From the NCBI GenBank assembly GCA_039812585.1, contig JBDIAW010000001.1, positions 15,547 through 79,546 on the forward strand: DNA of 64,000 bases, read 5' to 3'. This DNA comes from Actinomycetota bacterium (GTDB lineage: Bacteria > Actinomycetota > Actinomycetes > JBDIAW01). This document shows positions 5,019 through 50,126 of this stretch, one piece after another (the first letter of the stretch is position 1; each line of letters starts with the position of its first letter). The translations under genes were made by a program, and so were the position numbers. The notes beneath the pieces were generated by a model. It was not told the DNA's origin. It did not search any database and was given only the letters and a program-made list of their open reading frames with translations.

Positions 5019-6146
5019 TTAAAGCGAAAAGTAGGGAGATTCCATATAGTCATCCAAGCATTTCATCCATAAAACACTTGCTTTACGTCCCCACATTGCC
5101 TCGACTCTACTCGTGACTTTTTGGTCTGGATTAACTATAATCATTTCTTTTCTAAACTTCGAGAATTCGATTACTTCATCCATAAAAACTTTAAAATGCT
5201 GGTCACCACTAGGAAATGAGTACCCTATAAATACAATGCGATCGGATTGCTCAAGTGCAACTTTTGCCTTCCCCCAAATCGTTGCAAATGGCTGGTCATT
5301 AAATTTTTTAATCTGAGATGGTGCGATAAGTAAGGGGAGATATCTCGAGCATCTTTTGTAGGTAGTGGTTAAACTCCCGCCAACTAGTCTTCGATACCCG
5401 GTGTCATCGATAAGCAAGCCACGTGAACCATCTTCCCATTCAACATTAAACCAAGTAATACAGCCATGCAACTTTAATACCTCTACTGTAGTTTCGTCAT
5501 TGCAAAAATATGAGTAATAATCTTTGCGGCTAAAGTACGGAAGGGGTCCAGAGCATTCAATCAGAGCAATGTCATCGAACTCAAATCCATAACAACACTG
5601 CCTTTTCCAGCGATAAATTGCAGGAGGTAGTGTCAGTCTGAACTTGTCAGGATGGTGCTTGTATAAATCAATATAGGGTTCTTCGTAGCATTTTATCCGA
5701 GTAGACAGCTGGGACTCTATGAGCCTTTCAAGTACGGTATCGTAATTGAAAGTAATCACTGGTTCATTCGAACGAATGATAGACTGGGCTAAACGACTCG
5801 CATTACTATCTTCGGTGATGTTTATTCTCCCAACCAATTGTCCTAAAAGATGGACTGCTTGGAGAAAGATCTGATATTCTTCTGGATTATAACCGAAGCT
5901 TGTGGGATCAGATGGCATATCTAGCCCAGTAAAAAATTTTTCTAGGTTTAAAGTTTTCCCTTTAAGTAGATCTCTATAACTAATGTTCCATTTATTGCTA
6001 ATATACTGATCGAGTCCAGATCCTTCAAATTCTGGGTTTTCTTTGACCACATAATTGAAAAAATTGTCCGAAACGAATGCTTCGATGTACTGCTCATGAG
6101 GGTGTTTACGAAATGCCTTATTAAAACCAGCGCCCAGTACGTACAT
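5019..6146 (-). CDS. SIR2_2-family (ThsA/DSR-like sirtuin) NADase-domain protein, stand-alone, ~375 aa
   Basis: Three SIR2_2 motifs occur in order: 'YVLGAGFNKAF' (GAG nucleotide-binding loop), 'VITFNYDTVLE' (TNYD motif) and 'KLHGCITWF' (catalytic HG), plus 'RIVFIGYSFPSGDQHF' (the VGFSF motif of ThsA). The gene is ~37% GC in a ~67% GC genome. The ATG at 6146 lies 2 nt after the dnaB stop. The longer tracked ORF (to 6470) overlaps dnaB and is not believed. Confidence 0.6.
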   Translation of the reverse strand: MYVLGAGFNKAFRKHPHEQYIEAFVSDNFFNYVVKENPEFEGSGLDQYISNKWNISYRDLLKGKTLNLEKFFTGLDMPSDPTSFGYNPEEYQIFLQAVHLLGQLVGRINITEDSNASRLAQSIIRSNEPVITFNYDTVLERLIESQLSTRIKCYEEPYIDLYKHHPDKFRLTLPPAIYRWKRQCCYGFEFDDIALIECSGPLPYFSRKDYYSYFCNDETTVEVLKLHGCITWFNVEWEDGSRGLLIDDTGYRRLVGGSLTTTYKRCSRYLPLLIAPSQIKKFNDQPFATIWGKAKVALEQSDRIVFIGYSFPSGDQHFKVFMDEVIEFSKFRKEMIIVNPDQKVTSRVEAMWGRKASVLWMKCLDDYMESPYFSL

Positions 6147-6147
6147 C

Positions 6148-7560
6148 TTACATCCCTGCGGCCATATCGACGAAGCGGGAGTAGTGGCCTTGGAAAGCAA
6201 CGGTGATGGTGTCGGTGGGGCCGTTGCGTTGCTTGGCAACGATGAAGTCCGCCTCCCCGGCCCGGGGTGATTCTCGGTCGTAAACATCTTCGCGGTGCAG
6301 CAGAATGACCACGTCAGAGTCCTGCTCGATACTGCCCGATTCGCGCAGGTCAGAAAGCATAGGTTTCTTATCGGCGCGCTGTTCGCTGGAGCGGTTGAGT
6401 TGGGAGAGCGCCACGACGGGGACGTCAAGCTCCTTAGCCAGCAGCTTGAGCGAACGGGAGAACTCGGCAACCTCTTGTTGGCGTGATTCCACCCGCTTTC
6501 CGCTGCTCATCAACTGCAGGTAGTCGATAATCACCAGCTTGAGGTCGTGGCGCTGCTTGAGCCTGCGGCATTTGGCGCGAATCTCCATCAGCGACATGTT
6601 GGGGGAGTCGTCGATGAACAGCGGCGCGTTGGATACCTCCCCCATGCGCTTGGCCAGCTTGTTCCAGTCTTCATCGGTCATCGTGCCCGCACGCATGTGT
6701 TGCAGCGGCACTTTGGCCTCAGCCGACAGCAAACGCATAGTGATCTCATTGCGGCCCATTTCCAAGCTGAACACACAGGTAGGCAAGTTGTTTTTCACCG
6801 CAGCGCATCGGGCAATATCCAAGGCCAGGGTGGATTTACCCATCGATGGGCGGGCGGCTATAACGACCATCTGGCCCGGATGCAAACCGTTGGTCAGCTT
6901 GTCTAAGTCGGCAAAACCGGTAGGCACTCCGGTCATCGCCCCACCCCGGGAGCCGATGGCCTCCAGCTCGTCGAGCGCACCTTCCATGATGGCTGACAGG
7001 GGCTGGTAGTCCTCGCTGTTGCGTTGCTCAGTGACCGCATACATCACCGACTGGGCGGCATCCACCAGGTCGGTAGCCTCCGCCCCATCGGCGGAGTACC
7101 CCATCTGCACGATGCGGGTGCCAGCGTCCACCAGTCGGCGCAGCAGAGCCCTCTCACTGACAATGCGGGCGTAGTACTCCGCGTTGGCCGCTGTGGGCAC
7201 CATGGAGATCAACGTGTGCAGATAAGCTGCGCCGCCGATGCGGTTGAGTTCTCCACGCTTGGTCAGCTCGGCACTGACGGTGATGGGGTCCGCCGGTTGG
7301 CCTCGAGCGTAAAGATCAGTGATGATCTCGAAGATCAGCTCGTGGGCTGGGATGTAAAAGTCGCTGGAGTGCGTGACCTGCACGACGTCGGCGATGGCGT
7401 CCTTACTCATCAGCATGCCACCCAGCGCGGACTGCTCCGCGCCCACATCTTGGGGCGGAGTGCGGTCATAGGAGGGGCCCTGCTGACTGGAGGTGCCACT
7501 GTCGTTGGAGTGTTGCGGCCGTTGCGGCAAAGAAGTGACCGACATGGGCTGCCTTTCCAC
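6148..7560 (-). CDS. dnaB: Replicative DNA helicase DnaB
   Basis: A full-length 470-aa product with Walker A 'GARPSMGKST', the DnaB N-terminal domain and conserved rplI-dnaB synteny. No intein is present. Confidence 0.95.
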   Translation of the reverse strand: MERQPMSVTSLPQRPQHSNDSGTSSQQGPSYDRTPPQDVGAEQSALGGMLMSKDAIADVVQVTHSSDFYIPAHELIFEIITDLYARGQPADPITVSAELTKRGELNRIGGAAYLHTLISMVPTAANAEYYARIVSERALLRRLVDAGTRIVQMGYSADGAEATDLVDAAQSVMYAVTEQRNSEDYQPLSAIMEGALDELEAIGSRGGAMTGVPTGFADLDKLTNGLHPGQMVVIAARPSMGKSTLALDIARCAAVKNNLPTCVFSLEMGRNEITMRLLSAEAKVPLQHMRAGTMTDEDWNKLAKRMGEVSNAPLFIDDSPNMSLMEIRAKCRRLKQRHDLKLVIIDYLQLMSSGKRVESRQQEVAEFSRSLKLLAKELDVPVVALSQLNRSSEQRADKKPMLSDLRESGSIEQDSDVVILLHREDVYDRESPRAGEADFIVAKQRNGPTDTITVAFQGHYSRFVDMAAGM

Positions 7561-17463: not shown

Positions 17464-19983
17464 CTACCCACCCCCAGCCTGTTGACCTGGTTTGGGCTTA
17501 GTACTGCTGGTCGTGGTAGTCGGCAGGGTGGGTAGTGAGGAGCTTGAAGTAGAGCTGGTGGGGGTGGTCGGCTCGGTGGTGGGATCCGTCGATGTGGGGG
17601 TGGTCGGCAAAGTGGGAAGGGTGGGTTCCCCGGTTGGCAACGTGGATGCTGTGGGGGTATTGGTGGCGTTAGGATCGCTGGGATCGGTGGGCTGTCCACT
17701 GGGCGGTGCTGGGGGGGCAGTGACCGGAGGAACGGTCAATCCATCTGTGGAGCGGGCAAACTCCACTTTAGGGATGAGGTTTTTGTTGAATACTTGCAAC
17801 ATGTAGTTATACCAAATCTTTCCCGGCAATCCCCCACCGTAAAAATTGGCATAACCTCCCACTCCATTGAGGGATCGCAAGGTTGCATTACCTTGTGCAT
17901 CAACGCTCTCTCCATAGAAATTCACTGCCGTTGCTATCTTGGGAGTAACCCCCACATACCAAGCACTCTTATTATCTTGGGCAGTGCCGGTTTTCGCCGC
18001 TATCTGCAAGGTGCCTGGATCGTTTAAGGAGGCAGCTACTCTGCCAGTGGCGTACGGTTGGGTGGCTACCCGGTTCATGACGAACAGAACATCGGCGCAA
18101 AGATTACCTGCGTTCTCTTTACTGAGATCGCTAAATACTGGCTTTGCCGAGTCAGGTCCACGGTAAACCACCGTTCCATTGGGGGTTTGCGCCTCGCGGA
18201 TGAGATGGGGCTTGGCGCGTTGGCAACCCGCAGCAATAGAGGCATAAGCATTGGCCAAATCTATAGGCCGCACGGCTGCCGACCCTAAAGTCATGGTAGC
18301 TTCGGCGTTGAGCCCTCTGGCCAGATTTCGGGTAATACCAAGGTCTTCTATCGTTTTTCTAATTTGATCGAATCCAACGTGCTGAGCGATATCGACATAG
18401 GCAGTGTTAATCGAGCGTTCAGTCGCCTCGACGATATCCACGATTCCATATTTACTTGCTGGCCCATCGGTGGCATTGTTTACAGTACGCTCGGGATCTT
18501 TAGGATTGCCTGTTTTAATGGTCAACGGTGCATTGCCATTCCATCTCTTATCCCAGACGTTGTATTGCTTATCTTTCAATCCGGTCAGCATGGTAAAAGG
18601 TTTGAAAGTCGACCCCGCCTGGAGATGACCATCCATAGCCGAGTTGAATTGCACCTGCTTGTAATCAGAGCCCCCATACATGGCCAATACAGCCCCGCTG
18701 CCGGGCTGTATGGAAACCAATGAGGCGTGAACCTTGGGGTCCTTTTTTTGAATGGGCTCATAGAGATTTTCCATGGCTCGATTGGCTTCTTCTTGTAACT
18801 TCTTATCGAAGGTGGTGTAGATCCTCAGACCCCCACCATCAATGAGCTGTTCAGATACTCCACTATCAGCCAGCTCCTTACGTATAGCAGCATATAAGTA
18901 CCCATTAGGTCCACTAAAGTCTTGCATGGTAGAGCGATACGGCTCAAACTTCGGTAGTTTTTGCTTCGCGCGATCAGCAGGAGTGAGCCATCCATGCTCC
19001 ACCATCTTATTCAGAACATCATTCCATGCGAACTCGGCGCGTACCATGCGCTCTTTATGAGCGATAGACGTTTCTCCTTCTTTAATATCTTGAGTGTAAA
19101 GACCTGGGGATCGAATCAGCACCGCCAGATAAGCTCCTTGAGCCACAGTTAATTTACTGGCTGGGCATTTGAAATAAGCCTGAGCAGCTGCTTCGATACC
19201 CCATGTGCCTCTCCCCCAGTAGATAGCATTAAGATATCGCTCGAGAATTTGCTCTTTTTTGAGCTTACGGTTCACTTTCAATGCTAACAAAAACTCTTTA
19301 GACTTTCTTTTCAATGTTTGCTCAGACCCCACATAGACGTTTTTAACGTATTGTTGAGTGATGGTAGAACCACCCTGCTGATCCCCGCCTCGAAGGTTAT
19401 TGATCACAGCTCGGGTTATTCCTCGAGGGGACACTCCGCTATTGTCCCAGAACGTAGTATCTTCTGCAGCAATGACTGCGTTTTGTACATGCTTGGGAAC
19501 CTGATCAAGGGTAATACTGAAGCGGGTTTTAGTTCCCAAAATACCCATTTCCGAGTTATCGCCCCAAAAAACTTTGGTCGCCTGTGCTTCAGAATCTTGA
19601 TCAGGCTTAGGCAAGGGAGTGCGCGCGTAAGCGACGGCAAAAGCAACGACCCCAAAAATAATCAAAGCGCTAACAGCCAACGTGCCGTATTTAACGAAAA
19701 GACGTAAAACATCTTTCCAGGTCTTGTGGGGACGACCTGGGCGTCGAGCCGAAGTACCTGATGCAACTCGGGCCCCATAGACCGTCCCCGGGCCACTCCC
19801 GGTAGAAACGCCGGGACGCGGGGGGGGAGTTGGGGTGACGGGTCGACCCATGCCCCCGGGGCGTGCCGGTGCGCCACTGCCAGGAAGAGAGGGCCACTGA
19901 GGTTGCCTGGCGCCGCCATCACCCCCCGAACCTCCCGCACCGGGGGGAGGGCCTGGTGTTCCCATCGAGTTATCCACGCACAA
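17464..19983 (-). CDS. ponA: Class A penicillin-binding protein (transglycosylase + transpeptidase) with a Pro/Thr-rich C-terminal tail
   Basis: GT51 motifs 'EDTTFWDNSGV' and 'RGGSTITQQYVKN' are present, with the transpeptidase 'STFKPF' (SxxK), 'SIN' and 'KTGT' motifs. The last ~100 aa are a P/T/S-rich low-complexity region. Confidence 0.9.
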   Translation of the reverse strand: MCVDNSMGTPGPPPGAGGSGGDGGARQPQWPSLPGSGAPARPGGMGRPVTPTPPPRPGVSTGSGPGTVYGARVASGTSARRPGRPHKTWKDVLRLFVKYGTLAVSALIIFGVVAFAVAYARTPLPKPDQDSEAQATKVFWGDNSEMGILGTKTRFSITLDQVPKHVQNAVIAAEDTTFWDNSGVSPRGITRAVINNLRGGDQQGGSTITQQYVKNVYVGSEQTLKRKSKEFLLALKVNRKLKKEQILERYLNAIYWGRGTWGIEAAAQAYFKCPASKLTVAQGAYLAVLIRSPGLYTQDIKEGETSIAHKERMVRAEFAWNDVLNKMVEHGWLTPADRAKQKLPKFEPYRSTMQDFSGPNGYLYAAIRKELADSGVSEQLIDGGGLRIYTTFDKKLQEEANRAMENLYEPIQKKDPKVHASLVSIQPGSGAVLAMYGGSDYKQVQFNSAMDGHLQAGSTFKPFTMLTGLKDKQYNVWDKRWNGNAPLTIKTGNPKDPERTVNNATDGPASKYGIVDIVEATERSINTAYVDIAQHVGFDQIRKTIEDLGITRNLARGLNAEATMTLGSAAVRPIDLANAYASIAAGCQRAKPHLIREAQTPNGTVVYRGPDSAKPVFSDLSKENAGNLCADVLFVMNRVATQPYATGRVAASLNDPGTLQIAAKTGTAQDNKSAWYVGVTPKIATAVNFYGESVDAQGNATLRSLNGVGGYANFYGGGLPGKIWYNYMLQVFNKNLIPKVEFARSTDGLTVPPVTAPPAPPSGQPTDPSDPNATNTPTASTLPTGEPTLPTLPTTPTSTDPTTEPTTPTSSTSSSSLPTLPTTTTSSTKPKPGQQAGGG

Positions 19984-22070: not shown

Positions 22071-22162
22071 CCACCGACTGCCCTGGTAAAAAGTCTGGGG
22101 GAATACCGCCGAACGGTATTCCCCCAGACTTTTTCATTGAACTACTCAGCGTGGGGCGGGCC

Positions 22163-22498
22163 CTATTCCATCACGTGGTCGTCCACTTTGAAGTCCAAGT
22201 GAGTGGTTCCGTCTGTCACCGAACTCACTGTCGCTGTCATACCCAGCTTGACTTCAGATTCCCCTGGCTCCACCCTGGGATAAATCACGCAGCGTAGCGA
22301 GGCTCCGACTTTGGCATCGATTCCCTCAGGGCAATCGACCCTGTCTAGAGGTTTGCCGACCTGTGCTTCTAGCGCGGATTTGGCTTTTTCTTCCACGGTT
22401 TTTTCCGAAAGACCTCTATTGGCATCTACGGAAACCGAACAGCCACTCAGCAGCGCTATCGCGCATAGCGCCCCAGCAGCAACAACTTTTGAACTCAC
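22163..22498 (-). CDS. Small lipoprotein (DUF4333-like)
   Basis: A signal peptide with lipobox 'LLSGCSV' precedes a ~90-aa mature domain. Confidence 0.5.
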   Translation of the reverse strand: MSSKVVAAGALCAIALLSGCSVSVDANRGLSEKTVEEKAKSALEAQVGKPLDRVDCPEGIDAKVGASLRCVIYPRVEPGESEVKLGMTATVSSVTDGTTHLDFKVDDHVME

Positions 22499-22648
22499 AG
22501 GTTGCCCCTTTCGTCAAATGTGATCCACAGGGGCCAGTGTGACGCTGTAGGGTGAAACTCGGTTGTCTTTGCAGGAAAACCACCATTAGGCCTAACAAGT
22601 CCCCAGTGGGTTGCCTCGTCGCCCTTCCTGCTGATCGGGACGTACAGT

Positions 22649-23243
22649 TTGCCTGTGGATTACCGGGTGGTGTTGGGTGCGCTGGCAACTGCTGTGGCTG
22701 TCATCGGCTACCTCCCGTATTGGCGCAACATGGCGCTGGGGCCGCACCAAGCCTCATGTTTTCAGCTGGTTAGTGTGGGCTGTTCTCACGACCGTGGCGT
22801 GTGCTGGGCAGATCACCGAGGGGGGTGGTCCTGGTGCATGGGTCACCGGTTTCACCGCTCTGGTGAGTTATGGCATTTTTTTCTTTGCATTGTTTCGTGG
22901 CGAAAAGAACATTACGGTGACCGATTGGCTGTGTTTACTTGGCGCAGCTGGGTCAATGGTGGCATGGTGGGCTACTCATGGCCCCTTACTAGCTGTCATT
23001 CTTATTACTATTATCGACGCGCTTGGGTTTGCTCCAACATTTCGGAAATCTTTTTACTCTCCTGACGAAGAAACGGCTTTAACTTATGCCCTCAGTGCGT
23101 TGAAGTTTATTCTGGCCATTATAGCCTTGCGGAACTTTACCGTTGTGACATGGCTTTATCCCGCATCTTTAGTAGTGATGAACGCTGGGTTCGTGGGAAT
23201 GGTTATGCTTAGGCGACGACAACTCCAAGGACACTCACCATGA
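22649..23243 (+). pseudogene. Small polytopic membrane protein, apparently frameshifted (frames starting at 22649 and 22677 join near 22740)
   Basis: Frame A gives a TM-like 'MPVDYRVVLGALATAVAVIGYLPYW' then nonsense. Frame B gives nonsense then four TM-like segments. A +1 shift at a G4 run near 22746 would yield one ~200-aa membrane protein. The 3' half is low-GC. Confidence 0.35.
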
Positions 23244-23480
23244 AACCTTTGCACCTGCCCTACTCGGTTGTTCTCATTGCCTGAGATGGCACACTCACCG
23301 ATACTCTTCCGGTATGGATCGAAGGCATCCAATCAACCTTGGCTCGATTGGGTGTATCCGCTAGTCAGCAACACATAGCTGGTCAATTTGGAAACATTGT
23401 CGGAGAAATAAACCTTGGCCTACCCAAAGAAGCCTTTCCTGCCTACCGCGACGCGCTCATGATTGGCGACACGGACAAGG
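23240..23480 (+). pseudogene. HAD-superfamily hydrolase remnant (motif I fused to motif IV, in-frame stop, internal deletion)
   Basis: It translates as 'MKPLHLPYSVVLIA*DGTLTDTLPVWIEGIQSTLARLGVS...AYRDALMIGDTDKA', which parallels the N-terminus and C-terminus of the intact HAD gene at 23576 ('LPYRAALIDWDGTLAQTLQAW...', 'AVMIGDSDKD'). A TGA replaces the first Asp of DxDGTL and the central ~100 residues are missing. GC is ~48%. Confidence 0.5.
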
Positions 23481-23484
23481 CGTC

Positions 23485-23559
23485 AGGTTTTGGGTTGATG
23501 TTTGTGCGGTTTTAGCGCGCGCAAGCGCCGCTAAAACCGCACAAACATCAACCCAAAAC
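23485..23559. repeat. Perfect 32-bp inverted repeat (hairpin) with 11-nt loop
   Basis: ggttttgggttgatgtttgtgcggttttagcg (23485-23516) is the exact reverse complement of 23528-23559. It is AT-rich for this genome and lies between the HAD pseudogene and the intact HAD gene. Confidence 0.85.
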
Positions 23560-23575
23560 CGGTGGAGGGTCAGAG

Positions 23576-24283
23576 GTGGCAGAATGGGGGGGCATGACCC
23601 TGACTGCGCCCGCCCAGGCCGACCCGCTGGAGTTGCCTTACCGGGCTGCGTTAATCGACTGGGACGGGACGTTGGCGCAGACCCTGCAGGCGTGGATGCG
23701 CTGCTACCTGCAGGCCTGCCAAGAGTGGGGCTGCCCGGCCACTCCCGAGCAGGTGGCCGCTCAGTTCGGCAGCTGGCAAGGGGTGCTGGACCTCGGGGTG
23801 GCACAGGAGTCATTCCAGGCGTACTGGGACCGGATGGACGTCCTCTTAGCACATCACCTCCCTAGCGTGGATCTCTACCCGCACGCCGTGGCTACCTTGC
23901 AGGCAGTACGCAATGCGGGGGTCTCCACGGCTCTGGTCACCACCGGGCGGCGGGCGGTATGGGGACCCAGCTTCACCAAACATGCGTTGGAGCCTCTGTT
24001 CGATGTCGTGGTCAGCGGCGATGAGGTGACTCAGCACAAACCTCACCCCGAGCCACTGTTGCTAGCGCTGCAGCGACTGGGCATCCCCGACCCTGGCCAG
24101 GCGGTGATGATCGGAGACAGCGATAAGGACCTGGGTGCGGCCAACGCCGCAGGGATGGATTCGGTGCTGTTCTATCCACCCGATCACCAGCAGTTCTACA
24201 ACAAGCCAATATTGCTTGAGCAGTACCAGCCGCGCCATCAGTGCGCCAGCTGGCGCGGTATCGGCACCGTCCTGCTGCCCTAA
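23576..24283 (+). CDS. HAD-superfamily hydrolase (phosphoglycolate phosphatase-like, subfamily IA)
   Basis: Motif I 'LIDWDGTL', 'VTTGRR' and motif IV 'MIGDSDKDLGAANAAG' are present in a high-GC gene. Confidence 0.75.
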   Translation: MAEWGGMTLTAPAQADPLELPYRAALIDWDGTLAQTLQAWMRCYLQACQEWGCPATPEQVAAQFGSWQGVLDLGVAQESFQAYWDRMDVLLAHHLPSVDLYPHAVATLQAVRNAGVSTALVTTGRRAVWGPSFTKHALEPLFDVVVSGDEVTQHKPHPEPLLLALQRLGIPDPGQAVMIGDSDKDLGAANAAGMDSVLFYPPDHQQFYNKPILLEQYQPRHQCASWRGIGTVLLP

Positions 24284-24359: not shown

Positions 24360-27300
24360 GTGATCATCGGTTCATCAGGAGTTGAGGTGCCGCGGATGTC
24401 GATCTCCCCCTACCCCCCACACCGTTGCAGGGCAAGCCTGATAGTCATGGCCGTGGTTGCCACCCTGCTCACCATCGTCAGCCCTTCCAGTGCCGCCCAG
24501 GCGATGGCAGCACCATCACCACGCTGCATGGGAAAACTCGCCACCATCGTGGGTACTGATGGACCCGACACGCTGCGGGGCACCCCCGGCCCGGACGTCA
24601 TGGTGGGGCTGGGTGGTGATGACGACATCGACGGTCTTGAGGGTGAGGACGTGCTGTGTGGTGGTCCCGGAGATGACCTGCTGCGTGGAGGCACGGGCAA
24701 AGACCGACTATTCGGCGAGGAGGGCAACGATGTGCTGGCCGGAAGCACTGCCCCTGACATGGTCGATGGTGGACCAGGCCGGGATGTATGCGCCGCTGGG
24801 CCGCAATGGCAGTGGGATTGCATCGCTGTAGCGCCAGGGCGGTTGCACGGTGTAGCGGCTCACAGCACCCGAAAGACCGAGGTGCGAATCATCGGCATTG
24901 GCCCGGTAGGTGCCAGCGTGCAAGTGTTTGGGGCCGGCGCACCTGCTAGCGCCACCATCGACAGCCAGGCAGTGTTCAGCATGACGGTGGTCTTGCGCCC
25001 AGGAGTGCGCAACCGGCTGCGCCTGGAGATTATTGGCCCTCGTCGAGACCAGGCGCAGCCGTTTTGGCTGTCAGTGCGCCAGTTGGCTCCCACCGGTACC
25101 CGCACCGTCACCGGGGAGGTACTTAACCCTGATGCCCAACCGGTGGCTGGGGCGCGAGTGGCCTACGGAAACCGGGTCAGCTTCACCTCGCCGGCCGGGA
25201 AGTACACCCTGACCGGGCTGCCCAGCGGAGCGCTGGCGTTGCAGGTCAGTAAACCGGGCTACTTAGGCAGCTTAGGAATGGTGCAGGCCGATCATCGCGG
25301 CCCTCAGTCGGTGCTGCTGCAACCTCTCGCCCCAGCGCTCACCCTCACCAGCGCGGGCACCACCGTGAGGGGGCTGGGTTACACGGTGCGCATCCCCGCT
25401 GGGGCTGTGAGCCGACCTACCCAGCTGCACGTCACGCCCGGAATCGCCACAGGAGGAACTGACGCCTACGGCTCACCGATCGTGGACCTGTCCCCCAACG
25501 GCCTGCGTTTCTCTCGACCTGTCACCGTGAGCCTGAATCCCAGCGTGTTGGGGACTACCGCCGAGCATGTGCAGGCGGTGGGGTTGAACCCTGAGACCAG
25601 CCAGGCTCGGGTATTGGACTCTCACATTGTCCAGGGCGAGGTGCAGGTCCGCGTCAGCACGTTGCAGGGGATGAAGTTCCTACTCAAACCCACCATTCAG
25701 CCCGAGGTGGAGTGTCAGCCTTACGCTGCGCTCAGCGATGCTTACCTGGCGCGTCTGTATTTACGCCAAGTCATGATTCCCCTCGTCCATGCACTGGTGG
25801 GGTATGAGGCAGCTCAACTGTGGTTTGACTATCTCGGTGGAGGGGTGGCTACACCCACCCCGGTGAACATTAGCTCCAGCAACGCCAAAGAGTTCGTGGA
25901 CGACCCCGATGCCGACCTAGCCATCTTCGAGGTCATGCACACCCTCAAAGCACACCTGACCGGCGCAGGGCCGGTACCAGCCCTGCGCCACCCCAGTAGC
26001 CCCGCCCAACGGCGTATCCGGGATTACGGGGTGGGTCACGAGGTGGCCATCACCTATCGAAACCCGTTCAACTACCCCGGCAACCTAGCCGGGGGGTTGA
26101 GCCCCGCCTCACCCTTATTGGGTGTACGCCACGACACCCGCACCATTGACGGGCCGGTGCAGTTCATCCCTTACGCCACCCAGCAAGGTGTGCTGACCGC
26201 CGTCAAAGCGATCGCCAAACCGACGTTAACCGTGGATGACAGTATGGATTTTTGCCCCGGAGATCTCACCCAAGGTCCCGAATACCACTTCACTTTGCCC
26301 ATGAGCCGTCTTGAGTCCACTGTTGATCCGCAAGATGGCAGATTCGCCCGGCCCATAGCCTTCCAGGCCCGAGCTGAGGCCAAGCAAGCCACCTACGACG
26401 TGACCCAGCGCTATCCCACCAACGACGCCGACCGTGACGGTTTTCCCGAACGTCAGCCCTGGTTGGACGGCGATTTCGTGCTGGATAACTGCCCCTCCAC
26501 GGCTAACCCAGACCAGGCCGATCGTGACGGTGACCATGTGGGAGATGCCTGCGACGATGAGGACAACCCACCCGACCCACCCGACCCTGGACCACAACCC
26601 CCCTCACTGGCGGGTTCTTTCGGTGACCCCCATTTGATCACCTACGACGGGTTGAGTTATGACTTCCAGGCCGCCGGGGATTATGTCGTCGCCACCGACG
26701 ATCGCGCGGATTTCCTGGTGCAGTTCCGTTACGCCCGCCGCGAGGCAGGGGCGCCCACGGTTTCCTATAACCGGGGGGTGGCTGCGAAGGTGGGGCCTTC
26801 GGTGATTGCCTTCGGCGATGACTCCTCAACCGACTTCCGAGCACCGCTCAACGCAACCCTCGATGGGCAGCCCCTCAACATCACTCCCACCCCCACACCC
26901 CTACCCGGTGGGGCCAGCGTGGTGCTACGAGGCAAGTACCGGGAGGTGAGCTGGGCTGATGGAACCACGTTAAGTGTTGGGCTGCGAGCGGCTGTGACCA
27001 CTCACACCCTCACCCTGGCACCCACGCGGCATGGTCGGGTGCGGGGGCTGTTCGGCAACGCCAACAGCCAACCCGGCGATGACTTGACCTCCCGCGAGGG
27101 CAGGACAGTGCAAGACGCCCGCCAGGCAGAGCAACTCTACGGTGCTTTTGGGGCCAGTTGGCGAGTCTCCGAAGGCCAGTCTCTATTCCGCACTCCCCTG
27201 CCTGCGGCCATTGGTGTGCCACTCAACCCCACGAACAACGCCACCATAGCCAACCTGACCCCCTCTCAACGCCACACCGCCGAGACCATATGCCGCTCCC

Positions 27301-28400
27301 GGGGCGTGCAAGCTGGGCAAGGCTGGCAGCAGTGCGTGCTCGATGTGGGAATGACTGGGGACTCCGCGTTTGCTGATCAAACCGCCGCCCAGGCCACTGC
27401 CCTGCGGGGCAGCGTGCCGGCTACCAGCTTGGCCAATGCGGTGGAATCCACCACTGCGCTCACCTTGGGGCAGCACGCCCGTGGCAGCCTAGATACTCCC
27501 CTAGCGGTTGATGTGTTCAACGTGGAGTTGACAGCCGGTGACTCGGTACGTGTGCAGCCCAGCGGTACTTGCCCCTCCTCGGGAACCTTCGCCCTCACCT
27601 TGGTGGCTCCCGACGGACGTCCTGTTGCGACTAGCCACGGCAGCGGATGCGGGCGTCTAGGGGTCAGCAACCTGCGCACCTCGGGGCGCTACCAGCTACG
27701 TGTGCAGGACGTGGGCGGGTTTACCGGCACCTACGATGTGCAGGTCACCGGCACAAGCCTGGGAGCTACCTGCCAGGCGAATGCGGTGGGGCCCAATGAC
27801 GACGACTCGGTGCAGGTGCGCGCTTTACCCTTCCCGATACGCCTTGGTGGGCAGACCTATCAGTCACTGTGGGTTAACACCAACGGAAACGTGAGCTTCG
27901 ACGGGCCGCTGTCCACTTTCACTCCCCGCGATTTGTCCACCTATCCCCGACCGATAGTGGCCGCGTGGTGGGCCGATGTGCTGACCAGCGGCTCCGGGAT
28001 GGGTCAGGTGCGTTACGGCACGGGTCAGGTTGGCGGGCGGCAGGCGTTTTGCGTGGACTACCACCAGGTTGGCTACTACGGAGGTCGCAATGATCCCAAG
28101 CGCAACACCTTCCAGTTGTATCTGGTAGAACGTTCCGACTCCGCCCCGGGGGCGATCGACATTGTTTACCGCTACCAACAGCTGCAGTGGGAGACCGGCG
28201 GGGCCTCTGGGGGGACTCAGGGTTTAGGAGGCACCTCCGCTACCGTCGGTTACACCGATGGCTCTGGTAACCCCGGTGGGTGGCATGAGGTGACCGGATC
28301 ACGAGTGCCTGGCTCGTTTCTCGACGGGGCACCGAACAGCCTGGTGTCCACCGCTACGGGCAGCGACCAGCCTGGTACTCACGTGTTCCCCGTCCGATAG
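24360..28400 (+). CDS. Giant secreted multidomain protein: RTX Ca-binding repeats, CarboxypepD_reg-like, thrombospondin type-3 repeats, von Willebrand factor D domain, PPC domain and a NIDO-like domain
   Basis: A signal peptide '...LLTIVSPSSAAQA' precedes 'GGDDDIDGLEGEDVLCGGPGDDLLRGGTGKD' (RTX GGxGxD repeats). It is followed by 'NDADRDGFPE...DNCPSTANPDQADRDGDHVGDACDDED' (TSP3), 'FGDPHLITYDGLSYDFQAAGDYVV' (VWD start), 'ELTAGDSVRVQPSG...YQLRVQD' (PPC-like) and 'LGGQTYQSLWVNTNGNVSFDG...IVAAWWADV' (NIDO-like). Confidence 0.8.
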   Translation: MIIGSSGVEVPRMSISPYPPHRCRASLIVMAVVATLLTIVSPSSAAQAMAAPSPRCMGKLATIVGTDGPDTLRGTPGPDVMVGLGGDDDIDGLEGEDVLCGGPGDDLLRGGTGKDRLFGEEGNDVLAGSTAPDMVDGGPGRDVCAAGPQWQWDCIAVAPGRLHGVAAHSTRKTEVRIIGIGPVGASVQVFGAGAPASATIDSQAVFSMTVVLRPGVRNRLRLEIIGPRRDQAQPFWLSVRQLAPTGTRTVTGEVLNPDAQPVAGARVAYGNRVSFTSPAGKYTLTGLPSGALALQVSKPGYLGSLGMVQADHRGPQSVLLQPLAPALTLTSAGTTVRGLGYTVRIPAGAVSRPTQLHVTPGIATGGTDAYGSPIVDLSPNGLRFSRPVTVSLNPSVLGTTAEHVQAVGLNPETSQARVLDSHIVQGEVQVRVSTLQGMKFLLKPTIQPEVECQPYAALSDAYLARLYLRQVMIPLVHALVGYEAAQLWFDYLGGGVATPTPVNISSSNAKEFVDDPDADLAIFEVMHTLKAHLTGAGPVPALRHPSSPAQRRIRDYGVGHEVAITYRNPFNYPGNLAGGLSPASPLLGVRHDTRTIDGPVQFIPYATQQGVLTAVKAIAKPTLTVDDSMDFCPGDLTQGPEYHFTLPMSRLESTVDPQDGRFARPIAFQARAEAKQATYDVTQRYPTNDADRDGFPERQPWLDGDFVLDNCPSTANPDQADRDGDHVGDACDDEDNPPDPPDPGPQPPSLAGSFGDPHLITYDGLSYDFQAAGDYVVATDDRADFLVQFRYARREAGAPTVSYNRGVAAKVGPSVIAFGDDSSTDFRAPLNATLDGQPLNITPTPTPLPGGASVVLRGKYREVSWADGTTLSVGLRAAVTTHTLTLAPTRHGRVRGLFGNANSQPGDDLTSREGRTVQDARQAEQLYGAFGASWRVSEGQSLFRTPLPAAIGVPLNPTNNATIANLTPSQRHTAETICRSRGVQAGQGWQQCVLDVGMTGDSAFADQTAAQATALRGSVPATSLANAVESTTALTLGQHARGSLDTPLAVDVFNVELTAGDSVRVQPSGTCPSSGTFALTLVAPDGRPVATSHGSGCGRLGVSNLRTSGRYQLRVQDVGGFTGTYDVQVTGTSLGATCQANAVGPNDDDSVQVRALPFPIRLGGQTYQSLWVNTNGNVSFDGPLSTFTPRDLSTYPRPIVAAWWADVLTSGSGMGQVRYGTGQVGGRQAFCVDYHQVGYYGGRNDPKRNTFQLYLVERSDSAPGAIDIVYRYQQLQWETGGASGGTQGLGGTSATVGYTDGSGNPGGWHEVTGSRVPGSFLDGAPNSLVSTATGSDQPGTHVFPVR

Positions 28401-31604: not shown

Positions 31605-32060
31605 TAAGGAGACGTCATGCGTGGCTTCCGTCGTTACTAATCCACAACCATCTTCACGTAGGGCGGTCCTCTCACTCACCGAGGGACCGCCCTATGGCTT
31701 GAGCGGGTAGTTAACAGTCGCCGGCTCCACAAAGAGCAGCCACATTCGTGACAAATCCTCCATAGCTCCTTCACAAACAGTTACCACTCGCTACAAGGCG
31801 TTTCGGAATATCACCAAGTAGTGGGCGTGTCGCCAGACCAAGGTCTAACTTCCCTAGGCACACCGGCCCCGCTAACGGTTAGATGGAGGAGGCAGGCAAC
31901 CGCCTGACTTCCAGTACATCTCCCAAGGAGTGCATCATGCGTGGCATCAAGCTCCGTGGCATCAAGCTCCGCTAACCCCGACGCGTTTAACTCGTTCGGC
32001 TTAACAGTTTGGCTGGTCCCCTACCGATGAAGTAGGAGGCCAGCCAAACTGTTAAGGGGG
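31605..32060 (+). promoter_or_regulatory. Leader region of the GGDEF/EAL gene: two SD-preceded mini-ORFs (MRGFRRY*, 31617-31640; MRGIKLRGIKLR*, 31937-31975) plus strong hairpins (about 31659-31694 and 32001-32055)
   Basis: Both mini-ORFs begin ATGCGTGGC and sit 5-6 nt after AAGGAG. The second contains a 15-nt tandem repeat 'cgtggcatcaagctc' x2. A 16-bp perfect inverted repeat 'ttaacagtttggctgg...ccagccaaactgttaa' ends 11 nt before the GTG start of the downstream gene. Confidence 0.3.
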
Positions 32061-32066
32061 GTACAC

Positions 32067-34166
32067 GTGCGTCGTTCTACCCTCACAGCTTTTTGGACAA
32101 TCGTTGCCGCCGGTACGATATCTGGCATTTGGCATTTCGTTTCTGTAGATCTCAAGCAACATTACGATCCTCTGGTTGTCATATGTTTAACGTTAGTTCT
32201 CATACTCTCGGAGCTATTTCCAGTAGAACTTAAGCGTGGAAGCAAAAAGGTCAGCGCACTTACGCTATCTAATGCGTTTATCGTCGTGCTTATTATTATG
32301 GGGCCGATTTGGCTATGCGCTTTCGCACAATTAATTTCCGAGATGATCAACCAAGTTAAAGAGAAATACAGACTAACAGCTAGCTTGTACAACGTTGCCC
32401 ATGTAATACTGGCGGCCGTCATCGCTTCGAATTGTTACCGGTGGGGTGAGGAAAACATTGTCCAGCTTCAAGGTGGAAATGTTTCCTGGGCGTTAATCTG
32501 GCTTATGCTTGTGGGCACATTCTACACAGCGTTTAGTTCAATGCTTTCAATTGTAGTAGGTGTGCTGGACTCCAAGATGAACTTAAAGGGTAGTTTTATT
32601 ATGGCGAAACAAGCCTACGGATACAGTCAGGCTATTGAAATATTGCTGATCCCGATAATTGTTGCCCTTGTAAATTACTGGCCTCCTACTTTGGTTTTCG
32701 TAGTTGTACCTTTGGCATTTGCGTCGCGGTATAATAAACTTTCAGCACAATTGACCACTTCCTCCATGCATGACCAAACCACTGGACTTCCTAATCGCCA
32801 TACGGTCGAAGAACAGTTTCATGAGACTGTTCAAAGTGGTACTCAAAGGTTAGCTGTTATTGTCGTGCAAATTGACAACTTGGGAGATATGACCCGAGCA
32901 ATGGGGCACCAAGCGGGAGATCAATTAATGTGCGATATTGCTGCTCGCTTGAATTCGGTGACGCGGCAAGGCACGGACATTGTCGGGCGCCTAGGGAGCA
33001 GCCGATTTGTCGTTTTAGCCCCTTTAGAAGAAGGGGTGGAAAATCCTCCAGATGTGAAATCAATTGGCGATCGTCTGTTGACCTCCCTGCGGGATGACTT
33101 TCGCTTGCAAGGGGTGCGCGTCAGTGTGTTGGCGACCGCCGGTGCCAGCCTCTACCCTGACCACGGCCAAACTGCAAGAGAACTGCTCCCCAAGGCGGAG
33201 GCAGCCATTCTCGACGCACCCCGCGGCCAGACCAGCCTGCACGACCCAGCCAACGAGATTTCCTCTCCCGAACGCCTGTCGGTGCTGGGGCAGCTACGCC
33301 ACGCCATCGACAACGGGCAGCTGGAGGTGCACTACCAACCCAAAGTCGACGCCAGCACTGAGATCGTGATGGGGGCAGAGGCCTTGGTGCGCTGGAGGCA
33401 CCCCGAACGCGGCTTGATTCCACCCATGGACTTCATCCCACTGGCGGAAAGTACCGGGCTGGTCAACCCCATGACCTGGGTAGTACTCGATCATGCATTA
33501 TCGCAGGTGAAACGGTGGACCAACCACCATTGGGGTCTGAAGGTGTCGGTGAACTTCGCCGCCGACTTGCTGATTGACAGCGAAACTCCTGCTCTGGTGG
33601 CCCGGGCGCTGCAACACAACCAGGTCAGCGCAGACCTGCTCATCATCGAGGTGACTGAATCCAGCTTGATCAAAGACGCCGCCCTAGCTATGCAGACGAT
33701 CACTGCCATCCGCCACCTGGGGGTGCAGGTGAGCGTCGATGACTACGGAACGGGGTACTCCTCGCTGGCTTACCTGCAAAAACTGGATGCCGACGAGCTC
33801 AAAATTGACCGGGCGTTCGTGAAAAACCTTGGTGCGCCTGACAACCAGCATGATCTGGCCATCGTGGAGACCACCGTCGCGTTGGGTCACCGGTTAGGAA
33901 TGGCCATTGTGGCCGAGGGGGTGGAAACTGCAGTGGAGCGCCAAATCCTGGAGGATGCTGGCTGCGACATGATTCAGGGCTTCTTCTACAGCAAACCGCT
34001 CCCGGGACCTGAGTTAACCGCGTGGTTAGCTCAGCGCCAGGTGCGGCCCCATCTGCCCAGTACCCTGCCCACTGCGCACCAACTCCACCAGATGATCCCC
34101 CAGCAAAATATTGGGCAACATACGGGCGAATGTGAGTCCGCCCCGCTGGGTTTCACGCTGGAATAG
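32067..34166 (+). CDS. Membrane-bound c-di-GMP phosphodiesterase: N-terminal polytopic sensor domain, degenerate GGDEF, active EAL
   Basis: About 8 TM helices occupy the first 230 aa. The GGDEF position reads 'RLGSSRF' (degenerate). The EAL domain has 'GAEALVRWRHP', 'LIIEVTES', 'DDYGTGYSSLAYL' and 'KIDRAFV'. Confidence 0.8.
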   Translation: MRRSTLTAFWTIVAAGTISGIWHFVSVDLKQHYDPLVVICLTLVLILSELFPVELKRGSKKVSALTLSNAFIVVLIIMGPIWLCAFAQLISEMINQVKEKYRLTASLYNVAHVILAAVIASNCYRWGEENIVQLQGGNVSWALIWLMLVGTFYTAFSSMLSIVVGVLDSKMNLKGSFIMAKQAYGYSQAIEILLIPIIVALVNYWPPTLVFVVVPLAFASRYNKLSAQLTTSSMHDQTTGLPNRHTVEEQFHETVQSGTQRLAVIVVQIDNLGDMTRAMGHQAGDQLMCDIAARLNSVTRQGTDIVGRLGSSRFVVLAPLEEGVENPPDVKSIGDRLLTSLRDDFRLQGVRVSVLATAGASLYPDHGQTARELLPKAEAAILDAPRGQTSLHDPANEISSPERLSVLGQLRHAIDNGQLEVHYQPKVDASTEIVMGAEALVRWRHPERGLIPPMDFIPLAESTGLVNPMTWVVLDHALSQVKRWTNHHWGLKVSVNFAADLLIDSETPALVARALQHNQVSADLLIIEVTESSLIKDAALAMQTITAIRHLGVQVSVDDYGTGYSSLAYLQKLDADELKIDRAFVKNLGAPDNQHDLAIVETTVALGHRLGMAIVAEGVETAVERQILEDAGCDMIQGFFYSKPLPGPELTAWLAQRQVRPHLPSTLPTAHQLHQMIPQQNIGQHTGECESAPLGFTLE

Positions 34167-42595: not shown

Positions 42596-43914
42596 GGCAT
42601 GCTCACATTAGGGTTGTCGGACTGGCGCCATTGAGGTTTGCTTTGGGTAGGTCCAAGGATATGTCGAAGCTCTAATTCCTCATTGACCACACCAGCTAAC
42701 CTTCGCACTCCTTCGCGTAATTGATCCACTGGAGGGAAGCAGTAAGAGAGACGCAAACTGCTTTCACCCAACACTCGCCCTGCGCCGGAGTAGAAAGCGC
42801 TGCCCGGAACATAAGCAACCCTTGCATTCAATGCGCGAGGCAGCATTAATGCTGAATCGATCCCCATGGGAAGGTTAACCCACACATAAAACCCGCCCTG
42901 AGGAACTGTCCAGTGCACTCCTTCAGGCATGGCTGCCGTCAGGGTTTCAATCACCGCATCACGCCGCTCCCGATAAATATTGCGATACGAGGTGATCTGT
43001 TGCTGCCAATCAAACTCCTGTAAATAGGTGCAGACAACTGTCTGGGCCAAAGCCGAAGGACACAACATAGTCGCTTCGGCTGCCAAAATCAGCTTGTCCC
43101 TAATCACCCGAGGTGCCACGACCCATCCGACCCGAGTGCCAGGAGCAAAGGTTTTAGAAAATGATCCCAGATAGATGACGTCTTCGTTGATGGAGCGCAG
43201 AGCTGGCAAAGTTTGGTGATCAAATCCGAGCAAGCCATAAGGGTTGTCCTCAACTAATGGCACTTTAGACTGAGCGCAAAGGCTCACAATCCGCTGGCGA
43301 CGCTCCAATGTTTGAGTCACTCCGGCTGGATTGTGAAACGTGGGAATGGTGTAAACAAACTTGGGAGCTTTTCCTTGGGCTTGACATCCTGCAATAGCTG
43401 ACGACAGCGCCTCGGGATGCAGTCCTTGCTCATCCATGTCGACATGAACAACTTCTGCTTCGTATGATCTAAATGCTTGAAGGGCACCCACATACGATGG
43501 GGCTTCAGCGAGGATGACATCGCCCGGATTAATGAACACCCTCGTCAATAGATCCAAGGCCTGCTGGGACCCAGTTGTGACCACTACGTCATCTGGGTGT
43601 GCTGCTATACCCTCTACAGCCATCACGGAGACGATTTCTTCACGTAGCTGAGGGTCGCCTTGGGCCGATCCGTACTGCAAGGCATAGGTACCTCGGGTTT
43701 TAATCAGCTCGGCAATCTTGTTCCCGATCTCAGCGAGAGGGAGAGCAGAGACGTAGGGCATGCCGCCCGCTAAGGAAACAATTTCCGGCCGTGAAGCGAC
43801 GGCAAATAGGGCGCGGATCTCCGAGGCGGTCATACTTGCGGTTCGCTCAGCCAGTAGTGGGATGGTTTCACGTGAAACCATCCCACTACTGGGGTTCTCC
43901 CCCTCAACACTCAT
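42592..43914 (-). CDS. PLP-dependent aminotransferase, class I/II fold (2-aminoadipate/MocR-C-terminal-like, no HTH)
   Basis: 'TASEIRALFAV' near the N-terminus, the fold-type I core 'VVVTTGSQQALDL' and a PLP Lys region 'YLGSFSKTFAPGTRVGW' are present. The stop overlaps the ddl start (ATGA). The start is uncertain (43914 or 43881), and the 5' end contains a parS site. Confidence 0.7.
   Translation of the reverse strand: MSVEGENPSSGMVSRETIPLLAERTASMTASEIRALFAVASRPEIVSLAGGMPYVSALPLAEIGNKIAELIKTRGTYALQYGSAQGDPQLREEIVSVMAVEGIAAHPDDVVVTTGSQQALDLLTRVFINPGDVILAEAPSYVGALQAFRSYEAEVVHVDMDEQGLHPEALSSAIAGCQAQGKAPKFVYTIPTFHNPAGVTQTLERRQRIVSLCAQSKVPLVEDNPYGLLGFDHQTLPALRSINEDVIYLGSFSKTFAPGTRVGWVVAPRVIRDKLILAAEATMLCPSALAQTVVCTYLQEFDWQQQITSYRNIYRERRDAVIETLTAAMPEGVHWTVPQGGFYVWVNLPMGIDSALMLPRALNARVAYVPGSAFYSGAGRVLGESSLRLSYCFPPVDQLREGVRRLAGVVNEELELRHILGPTQSKPQWRQSDNPNVSMP
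43865..43878. promoter_or_regulatory. parS site 2 (GTTTCACGTGAAAC) inside the 5' end of the aminotransferase CDS
   Basis: An exact consensus within the 20-bp palindrome atGGTTTCACGTGAAACCat. It encodes 'MVSRET' in the ORF. Confidence 0.8.
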
Positions 43915-44045
43915 CGAGGCTCACCTTCATCTTCGCTTCGCAGCGCATCCCACCGAACGGTCGCCAGCCTACTCATCGACGAGCCGACACCCTCTTAGCA
44001 GTGCTTTTAGTACGGACGCTGCCTTTTTATCAAACAGGAGGGGGC

Positions 44046-44059
44046 GTTTCACGTGAAAC
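44046..44059. promoter_or_regulatory. parS site 3 (GTTTCACGTGAAAC), intergenic between parB and the aminotransferase
   Basis: An exact consensus within the 24-bp palindrome ggggcGTTTCACGTGAAACgcccc. Confidence 0.85.
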
Positions 44060-44086
44060 GCCCCCTCCTGTTTGATAAAAAGTGTC

Positions 44087-47774: not shown

Positions 47775-48767
47775 TTAACGACGTTTGCTGCGTGTCTTCT
47801 TTTTTGGTTGCTGCCGTGAGGGAGAGTCCTTCTCCTGCGGTGTGGAAGTTTCCTCAGGGCTTACTTCGGAAGACTCCTTCTCATCGCGTTGAGCTCGCTG
47901 CTGAGACGTTACCCGCGAAAGGCTAAAACGACGGATACCGGAGGACGAAGACTGGGCGCTCTTAGTCGCTTGCCGTTCAAGATAAAGTTTTTCTGCCTTA
48001 GAACCAGGTGCGGGTAGACGGTGAATCACCACCATTTGCTGTCCCAATGACCACAGGTTGGTGGTCAACCAGTAAACGAGAACACCAATAGGAAAAACAA
48101 AGCCGGAAAGACCGAAAATAATCGGCATCACATACATCATTATTTTTTGCTGTTGAGCAAACGATCCCGTTAAAGCAGCTTCAGGCATATTCTTCATGAT
48201 GAGTTGCCGCTGCTGGAAGAACGTAGAAGCCGTCATAGTAACGATCAGAGTGGCGGCTACAATCTTGGCTGATAAAGAGTGAGTTTGAGTAAAAGTATCA
48301 AAAAGTTTAGCCCCAAAAAGGTGCGCATCTAAAGCCTGAGTTACTTTTTCGTGAGTCATGAAACCACGTGGATGGTTTTGTGATATACCCTTCAACACCA
48401 TAAATAAAGCAAAGAAGAACGGAGACTGAGCTAAAAGTGGTAGGCAGCTCGTGAAGGGGTTTGCTTTCCTTTCCTTATAGAGTTCCATTAATTTTTGACT
48501 TTGTAGCTGCCGATCATGTTTATATTTTTGTTGGATTTTTTTCACCTCAGGCTGAATAAGCTGCATAGCTCGTTGAGCCTTAATTTGTTTAACATAAAGG
48601 GGTATCAAAAAGGTCCGGACAACGAGCACTAGGCCAATAATGCTCAGGACCCACGTGACCCCCCCATTGTTAGGTAAACCAATTGAAGTAAAAATCCAAT
48701 GGAAGGATAACATGATAAAGGAAACCAATTTATACAATGGCTCCATGAGAAAATGAAGATTATCCAT
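47775..48767 (-). CDS. yidC: Membrane protein insertase YidC
   Basis: TM helices, the conserved 'PFTSCLPLLAQSPFFFALF' region and a basic C-terminal tail are present. GC is lower than the genome average. Confidence 0.9.
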   Translation of the reverse strand: MDNLHFLMEPLYKLVSFIMLSFHWIFTSIGLPNNGGVTWVLSIIGLVLVVRTFLIPLYVKQIKAQRAMQLIQPEVKKIQQKYKHDRQLQSQKLMELYKERKANPFTSCLPLLAQSPFFFALFMVLKGISQNHPRGFMTHEKVTQALDAHLFGAKLFDTFTQTHSLSAKIVAATLIVTMTASTFFQQRQLIMKNMPEAALTGSFAQQQKIMMYVMPIIFGLSGFVFPIGVLVYWLTTNLWSLGQQMVVIHRLPAPGSKAEKLYLERQATKSAQSSSSGIRRFSLSRVTSQQRAQRDEKESSEVSPEETSTPQEKDSPSRQQPKKKTRSKRR

Positions 48768-50086: not shown

Positions 50087-50126
50087 CGGCGTGTGAGTGA
50101 GCCTCCGATCTGAAGGGAAGGGCCCA

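Follow-up and report, generated by a model that had tools for sequence, protein, structure and literature searches.

A frameshifted transporter-type gene, a HAD phosphatase pseudogene and a perfect 32-bp inverted repeat in an actinobacterial chromosome

A 64-kb stretch of DNA from an Actinomycetota bacterium (assembly GCA_039812585.1, contig JBDIAW010000001.1), here called the window, contains a locus in which two damaged genes of foreign composition lie one behind the other and are followed by a perfect inverted repeat. The first gene, which encodes a seven-helix membrane protein predicted to be a transporter, is split by a frameshift, and the second, whose start overlaps the end of the first, is the remnant of a gene for a HAD-IA phosphatase. 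The inverted repeat separates the remnant from an intact HAD gene (coordinates of all features are collected in Table 1). An earlier note on this DNA had described a patch of about 0.7 kb with low G+C (GC) content, and had read it as the scar of a foreign membrane-protein/HAD cassette which inserted beside a native HAD gene and then decayed. The patch is indeed present, and the explanation considered somewhat more probable than all others together is that of a dying, horizontally acquired two-gene unit accompanied by a hairpin that acts at the RNA level.

The earlier note saw only the tail of the membrane-protein gene in the patch. The patch does hold the 3′ two-thirds of it, but the whole gene is present, and it carries a +1 frameshift that was missed. 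Codons 1-29 (VDYRVVLGALATAVAVIGYLPYWRNMALG) are read in the frame of 22649/22652, and from RTKPHVFSW onwards the protein continues in the frame of the open reading frame 22677-23243. The extra G responsible for the shift is also found in all three independent metagenome contigs. When this base is removed, the reconstructed protein of 195 residues can be aligned with its family over its whole length and retains 46 of the 46 columns that are invariant in a 16-sequence family alignment, which argues that the frameshift is recent.

The membrane protein belongs to a large and highly conserved family of proteins of about 195 residues that lack annotation. It matches no Pfam or NCBIfam family at E values up to 0.01-0.1, and a profile search against PDB sequences returned noise only. 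The search for homologues yielded 606 proteins, of which the best intact one (P0002) is 66% identical, and a neighbour-joining tree places the window copy as sister to this relative (the P0002/L004 copy). In a survey of 185,579 species-representative genomes, 271 loci carry a relative. The best 80 of these 271, which were inspected, come mostly from Saccharibacteria, other members of the candidate phyla radiation (CPR) and DPANN archaea, with some from predators of the Bdellovibrio/Micavibrio type and from Chloroflexota, and none of these 80 is actinobacterial. An AlphaFold model (pLDDT 89) contains seven helices in a 3+1+3 architecture superposable on solved PQ-loop/SWEET members, and the fold is accordingly predicted to be of the PQ-loop/SWEET/cystinosin type. 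Compared with proteins known to have the PQ-loop/SWEET/cystinosin/KDEL-receptor fold, however, the family lacks any sequence match in the three collections named above, has conserved motifs of its own (PYxR...TKPHxxSW, GPGAWVTG and PTFRK), and occurs in prokaryotes, chiefly in CPR, DPANN and predatory lineages.

The stop codon of the membrane-protein gene (TGA, 23241-23243) overlaps the start codon of the HAD remnant (ATG at 23240), which is the ATGA coupling reported earlier. In translation, the remnant reads MKPLHLPYSVVLIA, a stop, DGTLTD...AYRDA and, after a break, LMIGDTDKASG-FGLMFVRF and a final stop; it is a pseudogene. It can be aligned without gaps to the intact HAD protein encoded just downstream (40% identity over 73 residues, pairwise E 4e-18), which bears out the earlier statement that the two are of one subfamily, and it shares 45% identity over 64 residues with the protein P0129. 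Where the intact protein has I-D-W-D-G-T-L, the remnant has I-A-stop-D-G-T-L, encoded by the codons GCC TGA GAT GGC ACA CTC. The nucleophile Asp has thus become Ala (GCC, 23279-23281), and the TGA (23282-23284), at codon 15, stands in place of a Trp codon (TGG). The earlier note was right about the motif DGTLTD (23285-23302) and the TGA beside it, but had taken the stop for a replacement of the first catalytic Asp.

The remnant has also lost much of its length. An in-frame internal deletion at junction 23452/23453 removed about 88 codons (residues 88-174 of the intact HAD), rather than the roughly 100 central codons estimated before, and with them HAD motifs II (Ser/Thr) and III (Lys); some 48 codons of the C-terminus, whose absence had not been recorded, are missing as well. 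Motif IV was correctly identified: MIGDTDKA (23459-23482) aligns to VMIGDSDKD of the neighbour and of P0129, with the last Asp changed to Ala. HAD homology stops at Gly83 (23486-23488), and the stop codon of the remnant (TAG, 23513-23515) falls inside the hairpin, in frame with the intact HAD gene and 60 nt before its start.

The intact gene is a full-length member of the HAD-IA phosphatases (HAD_2, PF13419; PGP/PpaX-like). Its product scores 103 bits against HAD_2 (cut-off 23.8), 82.7 bits against Hydrolase (cut-off 26.4) and 48.8 bits against TIGR01509 (cut-off 29.4), and contains the motifs DWDGTL and GDSDKD. Of the features of these phosphatases, DGTLTD, the beginning of the cap region and MIGDTDKA survive in the remnant, which lacks the nucleophile Asp, motifs II and III and the C-terminus, and carries an in-frame stop. 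Neither protein reaches the cut-off of any NCBIfam equivalog. The nearest relatives of the intact HAD are 41-45% identical, none above 45%, and its subfamily mixes proteins labelled Saccharimonadales with proteins encoded on contigs of 59.5% and 69.8% GC, so that the native status which the earlier note gave to this gene is not established. With the remnant as query, a word-indexed homology search of 5.8 billion proteins gave no candidates, and an exhaustive phmmer search of 1.84 billion representative proteins gave four spurious, long repetitive proteins and no HAD. The alignments that the earlier note had proposed for finding the closest intact relative of the remnant therefore lead to the neighbouring gene and P0129 only.

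The composition of the patch differs from that of its surroundings. The best GC change point lies at 22864, with a GC content of 0.59 upstream and 0.49 downstream as far as 23575, and the HAD gene that begins at 23576 has 0.65-0.70. The GC content of third codon positions (GC3) is 0.43 in the 3′ two-thirds of the transporter gene and 0.52 in the HAD remnant, compared with 0.79 in the intact HAD gene and 0.81 in ino1. Within the transporter gene itself, GC3 falls from 0.69 in codons 1-70 to 0.43 in codons 71-195 (Fisher p = 9e-4). The same contrast across 84 homologous genes has a mean of 0.00 ± 0.07 and a maximum of 0.21, a range that the step in the window gene exceeds, and the patch therefore truly starts inside the gene, in line with the coordinates of the earlier note. 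A wider stretch of reduced GC runs from 22100 to 23600, its left edge marked by the hairpin at 22088-22134.

The low GC of the remnant bears on whether a foreign HAD gene was acquired at all, since the remnant could instead be an old tandem duplicate of the resident HAD gene that drifted towards AT. Its best match anywhere is indeed the adjacent gene (62.8 bits), the two HADs share a frame with starts 336 nt apart, and exhaustive searches found no closer relative. However, when neutral, AT-biased decay of the resident gene was simulated from GC3 0.79 to 0.52, about 5 stops per 73 codons were obtained (probability of at most one stop, 0.01-0.04) together with a residual identity of 23-36%, whereas the remnant has one stop and no frameshift over the 73 aligned codons and is 40% identical. 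Its low GC is thus inherited and not produced by decay. In addition, it matches in composition the foreign transporter segment beside it, with which it shares the ATGA overlap. A purely local origin by duplication is accordingly given only a slim chance.

The inverted repeat is real, although it lies one nucleotide further along (23486-23560) than the 23485-23559 given before. Its 32-nt arms are 100% complementary and 11 nt apart, so that the unit measures 75 bp. No second copy with up to 3 mismatches occurs in the 64-kb window, none of 100 shuffles reaches such a repeat, and no diverged copy was found in the window or in the fetched loci. Folded as RNA, the hairpin reaches -65 to -69 kcal/mol with z scores of about -10 to -14 for both strands. 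Three Logan contigs, assembled from as many sequencing runs (L001-L003), are 100% identical to window positions 22480-23515 and all end at 23515, and a fourth (L091) begins on the other side of the loop, the breaks falling 30 nt into each arm. These are exactly the break points that a 32-bp perfect inverted repeat would be expected to force on a k=31 de Bruijn graph. An assembly artefact was considered and rejected, as each arm is seen, in independent contigs, connected to a unique flank of its own. For practical work this means that k=31 assemblies break at exactly predictable positions wherever a perfect 32-bp inverted repeat occurs, and contig-end statistics could be used to detect palindromes.

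The earlier suggestion that the repeat is the terminus of a mobile element finds no support in these data. In such a scenario, the repeat would be a miniature inverted-repeat transposable element (MITE), or the paired ends of an insertion sequence (IS), since excised or deleted internally, whose arrival in the HAD gene brought about the deletion beside it. In common with MITEs, repetitive extragenic palindromic (REP) elements and IS terminal repeats, it has perfect repeats of about 30 nt, of a terminal type and around a short centre, it is located at the truncation point of a gene, and its sequence is unlike the rest of the window. It differs from them in being single-copy wherever searched and in lacking both a target-site duplication and an associated transposase. 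No direct repeat is found between the flanks ...AAGGCGTCA and GGTGGAGGG... (...GCGTCA on one side, GGTGGA... on the other), and the annotated neighbouring genes include no transposase. An exact 22-mer of the arm has no match in 596 Gb of species-representative (GTDB) genomes, an exact 20-mer has none in IMG/VR, and blastn of 22600-23600 against plasmid and phage collections returned nothing. A single 20-mer match in the JGI metagenomes has unrelated flanks and was dismissed as a chance match. Since neither a target duplication nor a second copy was found in the 64-kb window, which is all of the source genome that these searches covered, or in the genome, metagenome and virus collections, which do not include that genome, nothing supports a mobile element, which is judged highly unlikely. 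A protelomerase-type or parS-type site was rejected too, because the repeat lacks dyad symmetry at its centre and the genome's parS sites differ from it in sequence.

The earlier note offered, as the other possibility, that the repeat is the terminator of the cassette. The hairpin falls where HAD coding sequence should be, some 48 codons short of the expected stop, so it is not the cassette's own terminator in its original place. There is no U-tract after the stem on either strand. In Rfam, the hairpin yields only sub-threshold, generic microRNA-precursor models, and two tRNAs are all that passes the thresholds in the whole window. What it resembles are the hairpin-only ("I-shaped", U-tract-less) terminators of actinobacteria and long-stem bidirectional terminators, which likewise consist of a strong, perfect stem-loop ending a transcription unit; the same window has a hairpin with a 21-bp stem right after ino1. 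The present stem of 32 bp is far longer, though, contains a stop codon, has the next gene 15 nt downstream and is not followed by a U-tract.

The repeat had been called unlike anything else in the window, which holds for its sequence but not for its kind. The window contains further perfect hairpins with arms of 21-30 nt, and long perfect hairpins are thus part of the intergenic style of this genome. The hairpin at 22088-22134, which stands 18 nt past the ino1 stop and faces the convergent DUF4333 gene, is a textbook bidirectional terminator. Near parAB, two of five parS-like sites (GTTTCACGTGAAAC) are the exact centres of perfect, spacerless palindromes (43851-43892, 42 bp; 44023-44082, 60 bp) that far exceed the 16-bp parS, and the 60-bp palindrome ends in AAAAAG/CTTTTT, resembling a bidirectional terminator. 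Upstream of a GGDEF-EAL gene (32067-34166), two intergenic stretches (31610-31693 and 31938-32056) each hold a mini-ORF with an AAGGAG-type ribosome-binding site and a strong hairpin behind it. The mini-ORFs encode MRGFRRY and MRGIKLRGIKLR, each ending in a stop codon; the hairpin at 32000-32056 has 25+25-nt arms, and the two units look like a pair of leader peptides or attenuators.

The mini-ORFs and hairpins in front of that gene also provide an argument for the view that the locus is still functional. Synthesis of the transporter would then depend on a programmed +1 frameshift or an internal start, and the remnant with its hairpin would serve as a translated leader or attenuator for the intact HAD gene. 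The retention of all residues invariant in the transporter family fits this, as do the identity of the locus in three samples and the position of the remnant's stop, within the hairpin and in frame 60 nt before the HAD start. Against it, GGGG followed by CCG is not known as a frameshift signal, the reading frame of the remnant is already broken at codon 15, Rfam offers no match better than the sub-threshold microRNA models, and identity in three samples shows just that the same strain was sampled. A working locus of this type is considered very improbable.

The start of the patch inside the transporter gene fits a recombination joint better than the clean insertion beside a native gene that was originally proposed, although the foreign and decaying character of the unit was seen correctly. 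Such a joint would, hypothetically, connect an older, host-adapted copy of the transporter gene with a newer, foreign one. In the corresponding scenario, a second foreign transporter-HAD copy recombined with an older resident copy that had drifted to host composition; the crossover would lie near 22864 in the transporter gene, the other end would have been joined illegitimately just upstream of the resident HAD gene, and fold-back (snap-back) synthesis or template switching at this joint would have created the repeat, one arm being a reverse-complement copy of the other. Both homology-facilitated illegitimate recombination and template switching at quasi-palindromes are established processes. 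The scenario would account for the step in GC3, which is beyond that of any of the 84 homologous genes, for the fact that HAD homology breaks off precisely where the left arm begins, at its first codon, for a repeat that is perfect, single-copy and free of target duplications, as after a recent one-off event, and for the shared subfamily of the intact HAD and the remnant. However, the identity of the transporter to P0002 is 61% in its N-terminal part and 68% in its C-terminal part, and a comparison of the nearest relatives of the two halves gave no clear signal. With both halves at roughly equal distance from the sampled relatives, two sources are not demonstrable and a joint between them is conjectural. 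Divergence of this order would also leave too little DNA homology to anchor a RecA-dependent exchange, except with a donor much closer to the resident copy, and the left arm, which has no HAD homology past Gly83, is not obviously the "original" arm. A recombination scar is the main rival reading and is regarded as rather unlikely.

A bolder version, which is held to be distinctly unlikely, would make the patch a fossil of DNA that passed from a CPR/DPANN-type episymbiont to its host, and the hairpin a fold-back joining scar anchored on an older resident copy of the cassette. If true, it would afford a rare glimpse, at the level of the sequence, of genes passing from symbiont to host and of a palindrome arising de novo in a bacterial chromosome.

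The explanation that is somewhat favoured remains that of a dying two-gene unit acquired by horizontal transfer, with a hairpin working at the RNA level. Gene 1 encodes a predicted transporter of a CPR/DPANN/predator-type family and gene 2 encoded, translationally coupled to it through ATGA, a HAD-IA phosphatase; since both have a low GC3 and are coupled, co-transfer as one unit is the best reading. From the lesions, we infer that the phosphatase died first, through loss of the nucleophile Asp, gain of the TGA and loss of about 88 internal codons and the 3′ end, and that the transporter gene was hit recently, by the single +1 frameshift only. The DNA of foreign composition extends from inside the transporter gene to the 75-bp hairpin, 15 bp upstream of a HAD gene of host composition. 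The hairpin itself most likely acts on RNA, as a U-tract-less terminator or as a stem protecting the 3′ end, and would close the transcript of the dead cassette and insulate or process the intact HAD's message. A similar role appears to fall to the other long, perfect hairpins between genes. The locus is in this respect a case of ordinary genome decay, in which an acquired gene pair undergoes pseudogenisation beside a structured hairpin, a known kind of phenomenon.

Several observations weigh against this explanation. The case for co-transfer is made by shared composition and the ATGA overlap and by nothing else, and a transporter of this family and a HAD of this type are adjacent in 0 of 80 transporter loci (tblastn with both HADs) and 0 of 9 HAD loci (tblastn with the transporter). 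As far as sequence searches can tell, the remnant has no close intact relative among the 1.84 billion representatives or the 5.8 billion word-indexed proteins. The hairpin, which has no U-tract on either strand, was not called by a simple terminator scan, and its place within former HAD coding sequence is not the natural terminator position of that gene. Moreover, the intact HAD gene begins just 15 nt past the hairpin, and a terminator of full efficiency in this place would deprive it of any obvious promoter; no sigma-70-like site was found for it in a scan that covers actinobacterial promoters poorly.

Table 1. Coordinates of the features at and around the locus, numbered from the first position of the window.
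Feature	Positions	Strand	Basis or remark
Perfect hairpin, 21+21 nt, 5-nt loop, A5/T5 flanks	22088..22134		-36.7 kcal/mol, z -8.4; comparison hairpin
DUF4333 gene, left neighbour	22163..22498	-	Pfam DUF4333, E 4e-10; GC3 0.54, intermediate
Seven-helix membrane transporter gene (predicted), complete but frameshifted	22649..23243	+	Two reading frames and family alignment
GGGG run with one extra G (+1 frameshift)	~22733..22736	+	Separates ...NMALG from RTKPHVFSW...
Low-GC patch proper, GC 0.49	22864..23575		Change-point analysis; starts within the membrane-protein gene, ends just past the hairpin
HAD-IA phosphatase pseudogene	23240..23515	+	Translation and alignment to the intact neighbour
Left arm of the perfect inverted repeat	23486..23517		First codon is the end of HAD homology
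Loop, 11 nt, CGCGCAAGCGC	23518..23528		Three more base pairs form inside
Right arm of the perfect inverted repeat	23529..23560		Logan contig L091 begins at 23531
15-nt spacer with GGAGGG ribosome-binding site (23564-23569)	23561..23575	+	Directly read; between the right arm and the HAD start
Intact high-GC HAD-IA phosphatase gene, 235 aa, GC3 0.79, GTG start	23576..24283	+	Pfam HAD_2, E 2e-29

The host of the locus is actinobacterial. The window contains genes for Ino1, a PadR regulator, a class A penicillin-binding protein, a GT87 membrane protein and a DUF4333 protein, followed farther along by trxB, a gene for a cwlM-like amidase, parB, parA, rsmG, jag, yidC and dnaA, which is the conserved synteny of the actinobacterial origin region. 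The AT-rich gap between yidC (47775-48767, minus strand) and dnaA (50097-51584) marks the chromosomal origin region, which puts the transporter/HAD locus about 27 kb from oriC/dnaA. The organism has no close relatives in the protein collection, where its Ino1 and HAD are singletons at 90% clustering.

Segments of low GC also occur elsewhere in the window, and the chromosome is compositionally mosaic. They include a gene of 39% GC on the minus strand (5019-6470) with a SIR2_2 domain, which may be related to defence, a stretch of 46% GC (18300-19600) within the gene for the class A penicillin-binding protein (17464-19983), and the part of the GGDEF-EAL gene that encodes its membrane domain (32067-33000). 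Directly downstream of the intact HAD gene, positions 24360-28400 encode a secreted-type protein of 1346 residues in which RTX calcium-binding repeats occur together with VWD, NIDO and CarboxypepD_reg domains, an animal-like mix that is unusual in a bacterium.

Metagenomic surveys have led to the inference that CPR bacteria exchange genes with other prokaryotes (PMC10031880), and Saccharibacteria are epibionts that grow on Actinobacteria (bioRxiv 10.1101/2025.01.22.634366). The present locus resembles cases of CPR-host gene transfer in that a family of the CPR/DPANN type, with donor-like composition, is found in an actinobacterial chromosome. It differs from them in its direction, which here would be from a symbiont-type lineage to the host, and in the distance of its best relative (66% identity). 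As Actinobacteria are known hosts of Saccharibacteria, a CPR-type transporter in this position may be a small data point on gene flow from symbiont to host, and the presence of a family typical of ultra-small episymbionts and predators inside an actinobacterial chromosome is the mildly interesting point of an otherwise ordinary locus. The transporter family itself, being widespread, conserved, unannotated and of a predicted SWEET/PQ-loop-like fold, is a candidate for a nutrient-scavenging transporter and may deserve study.

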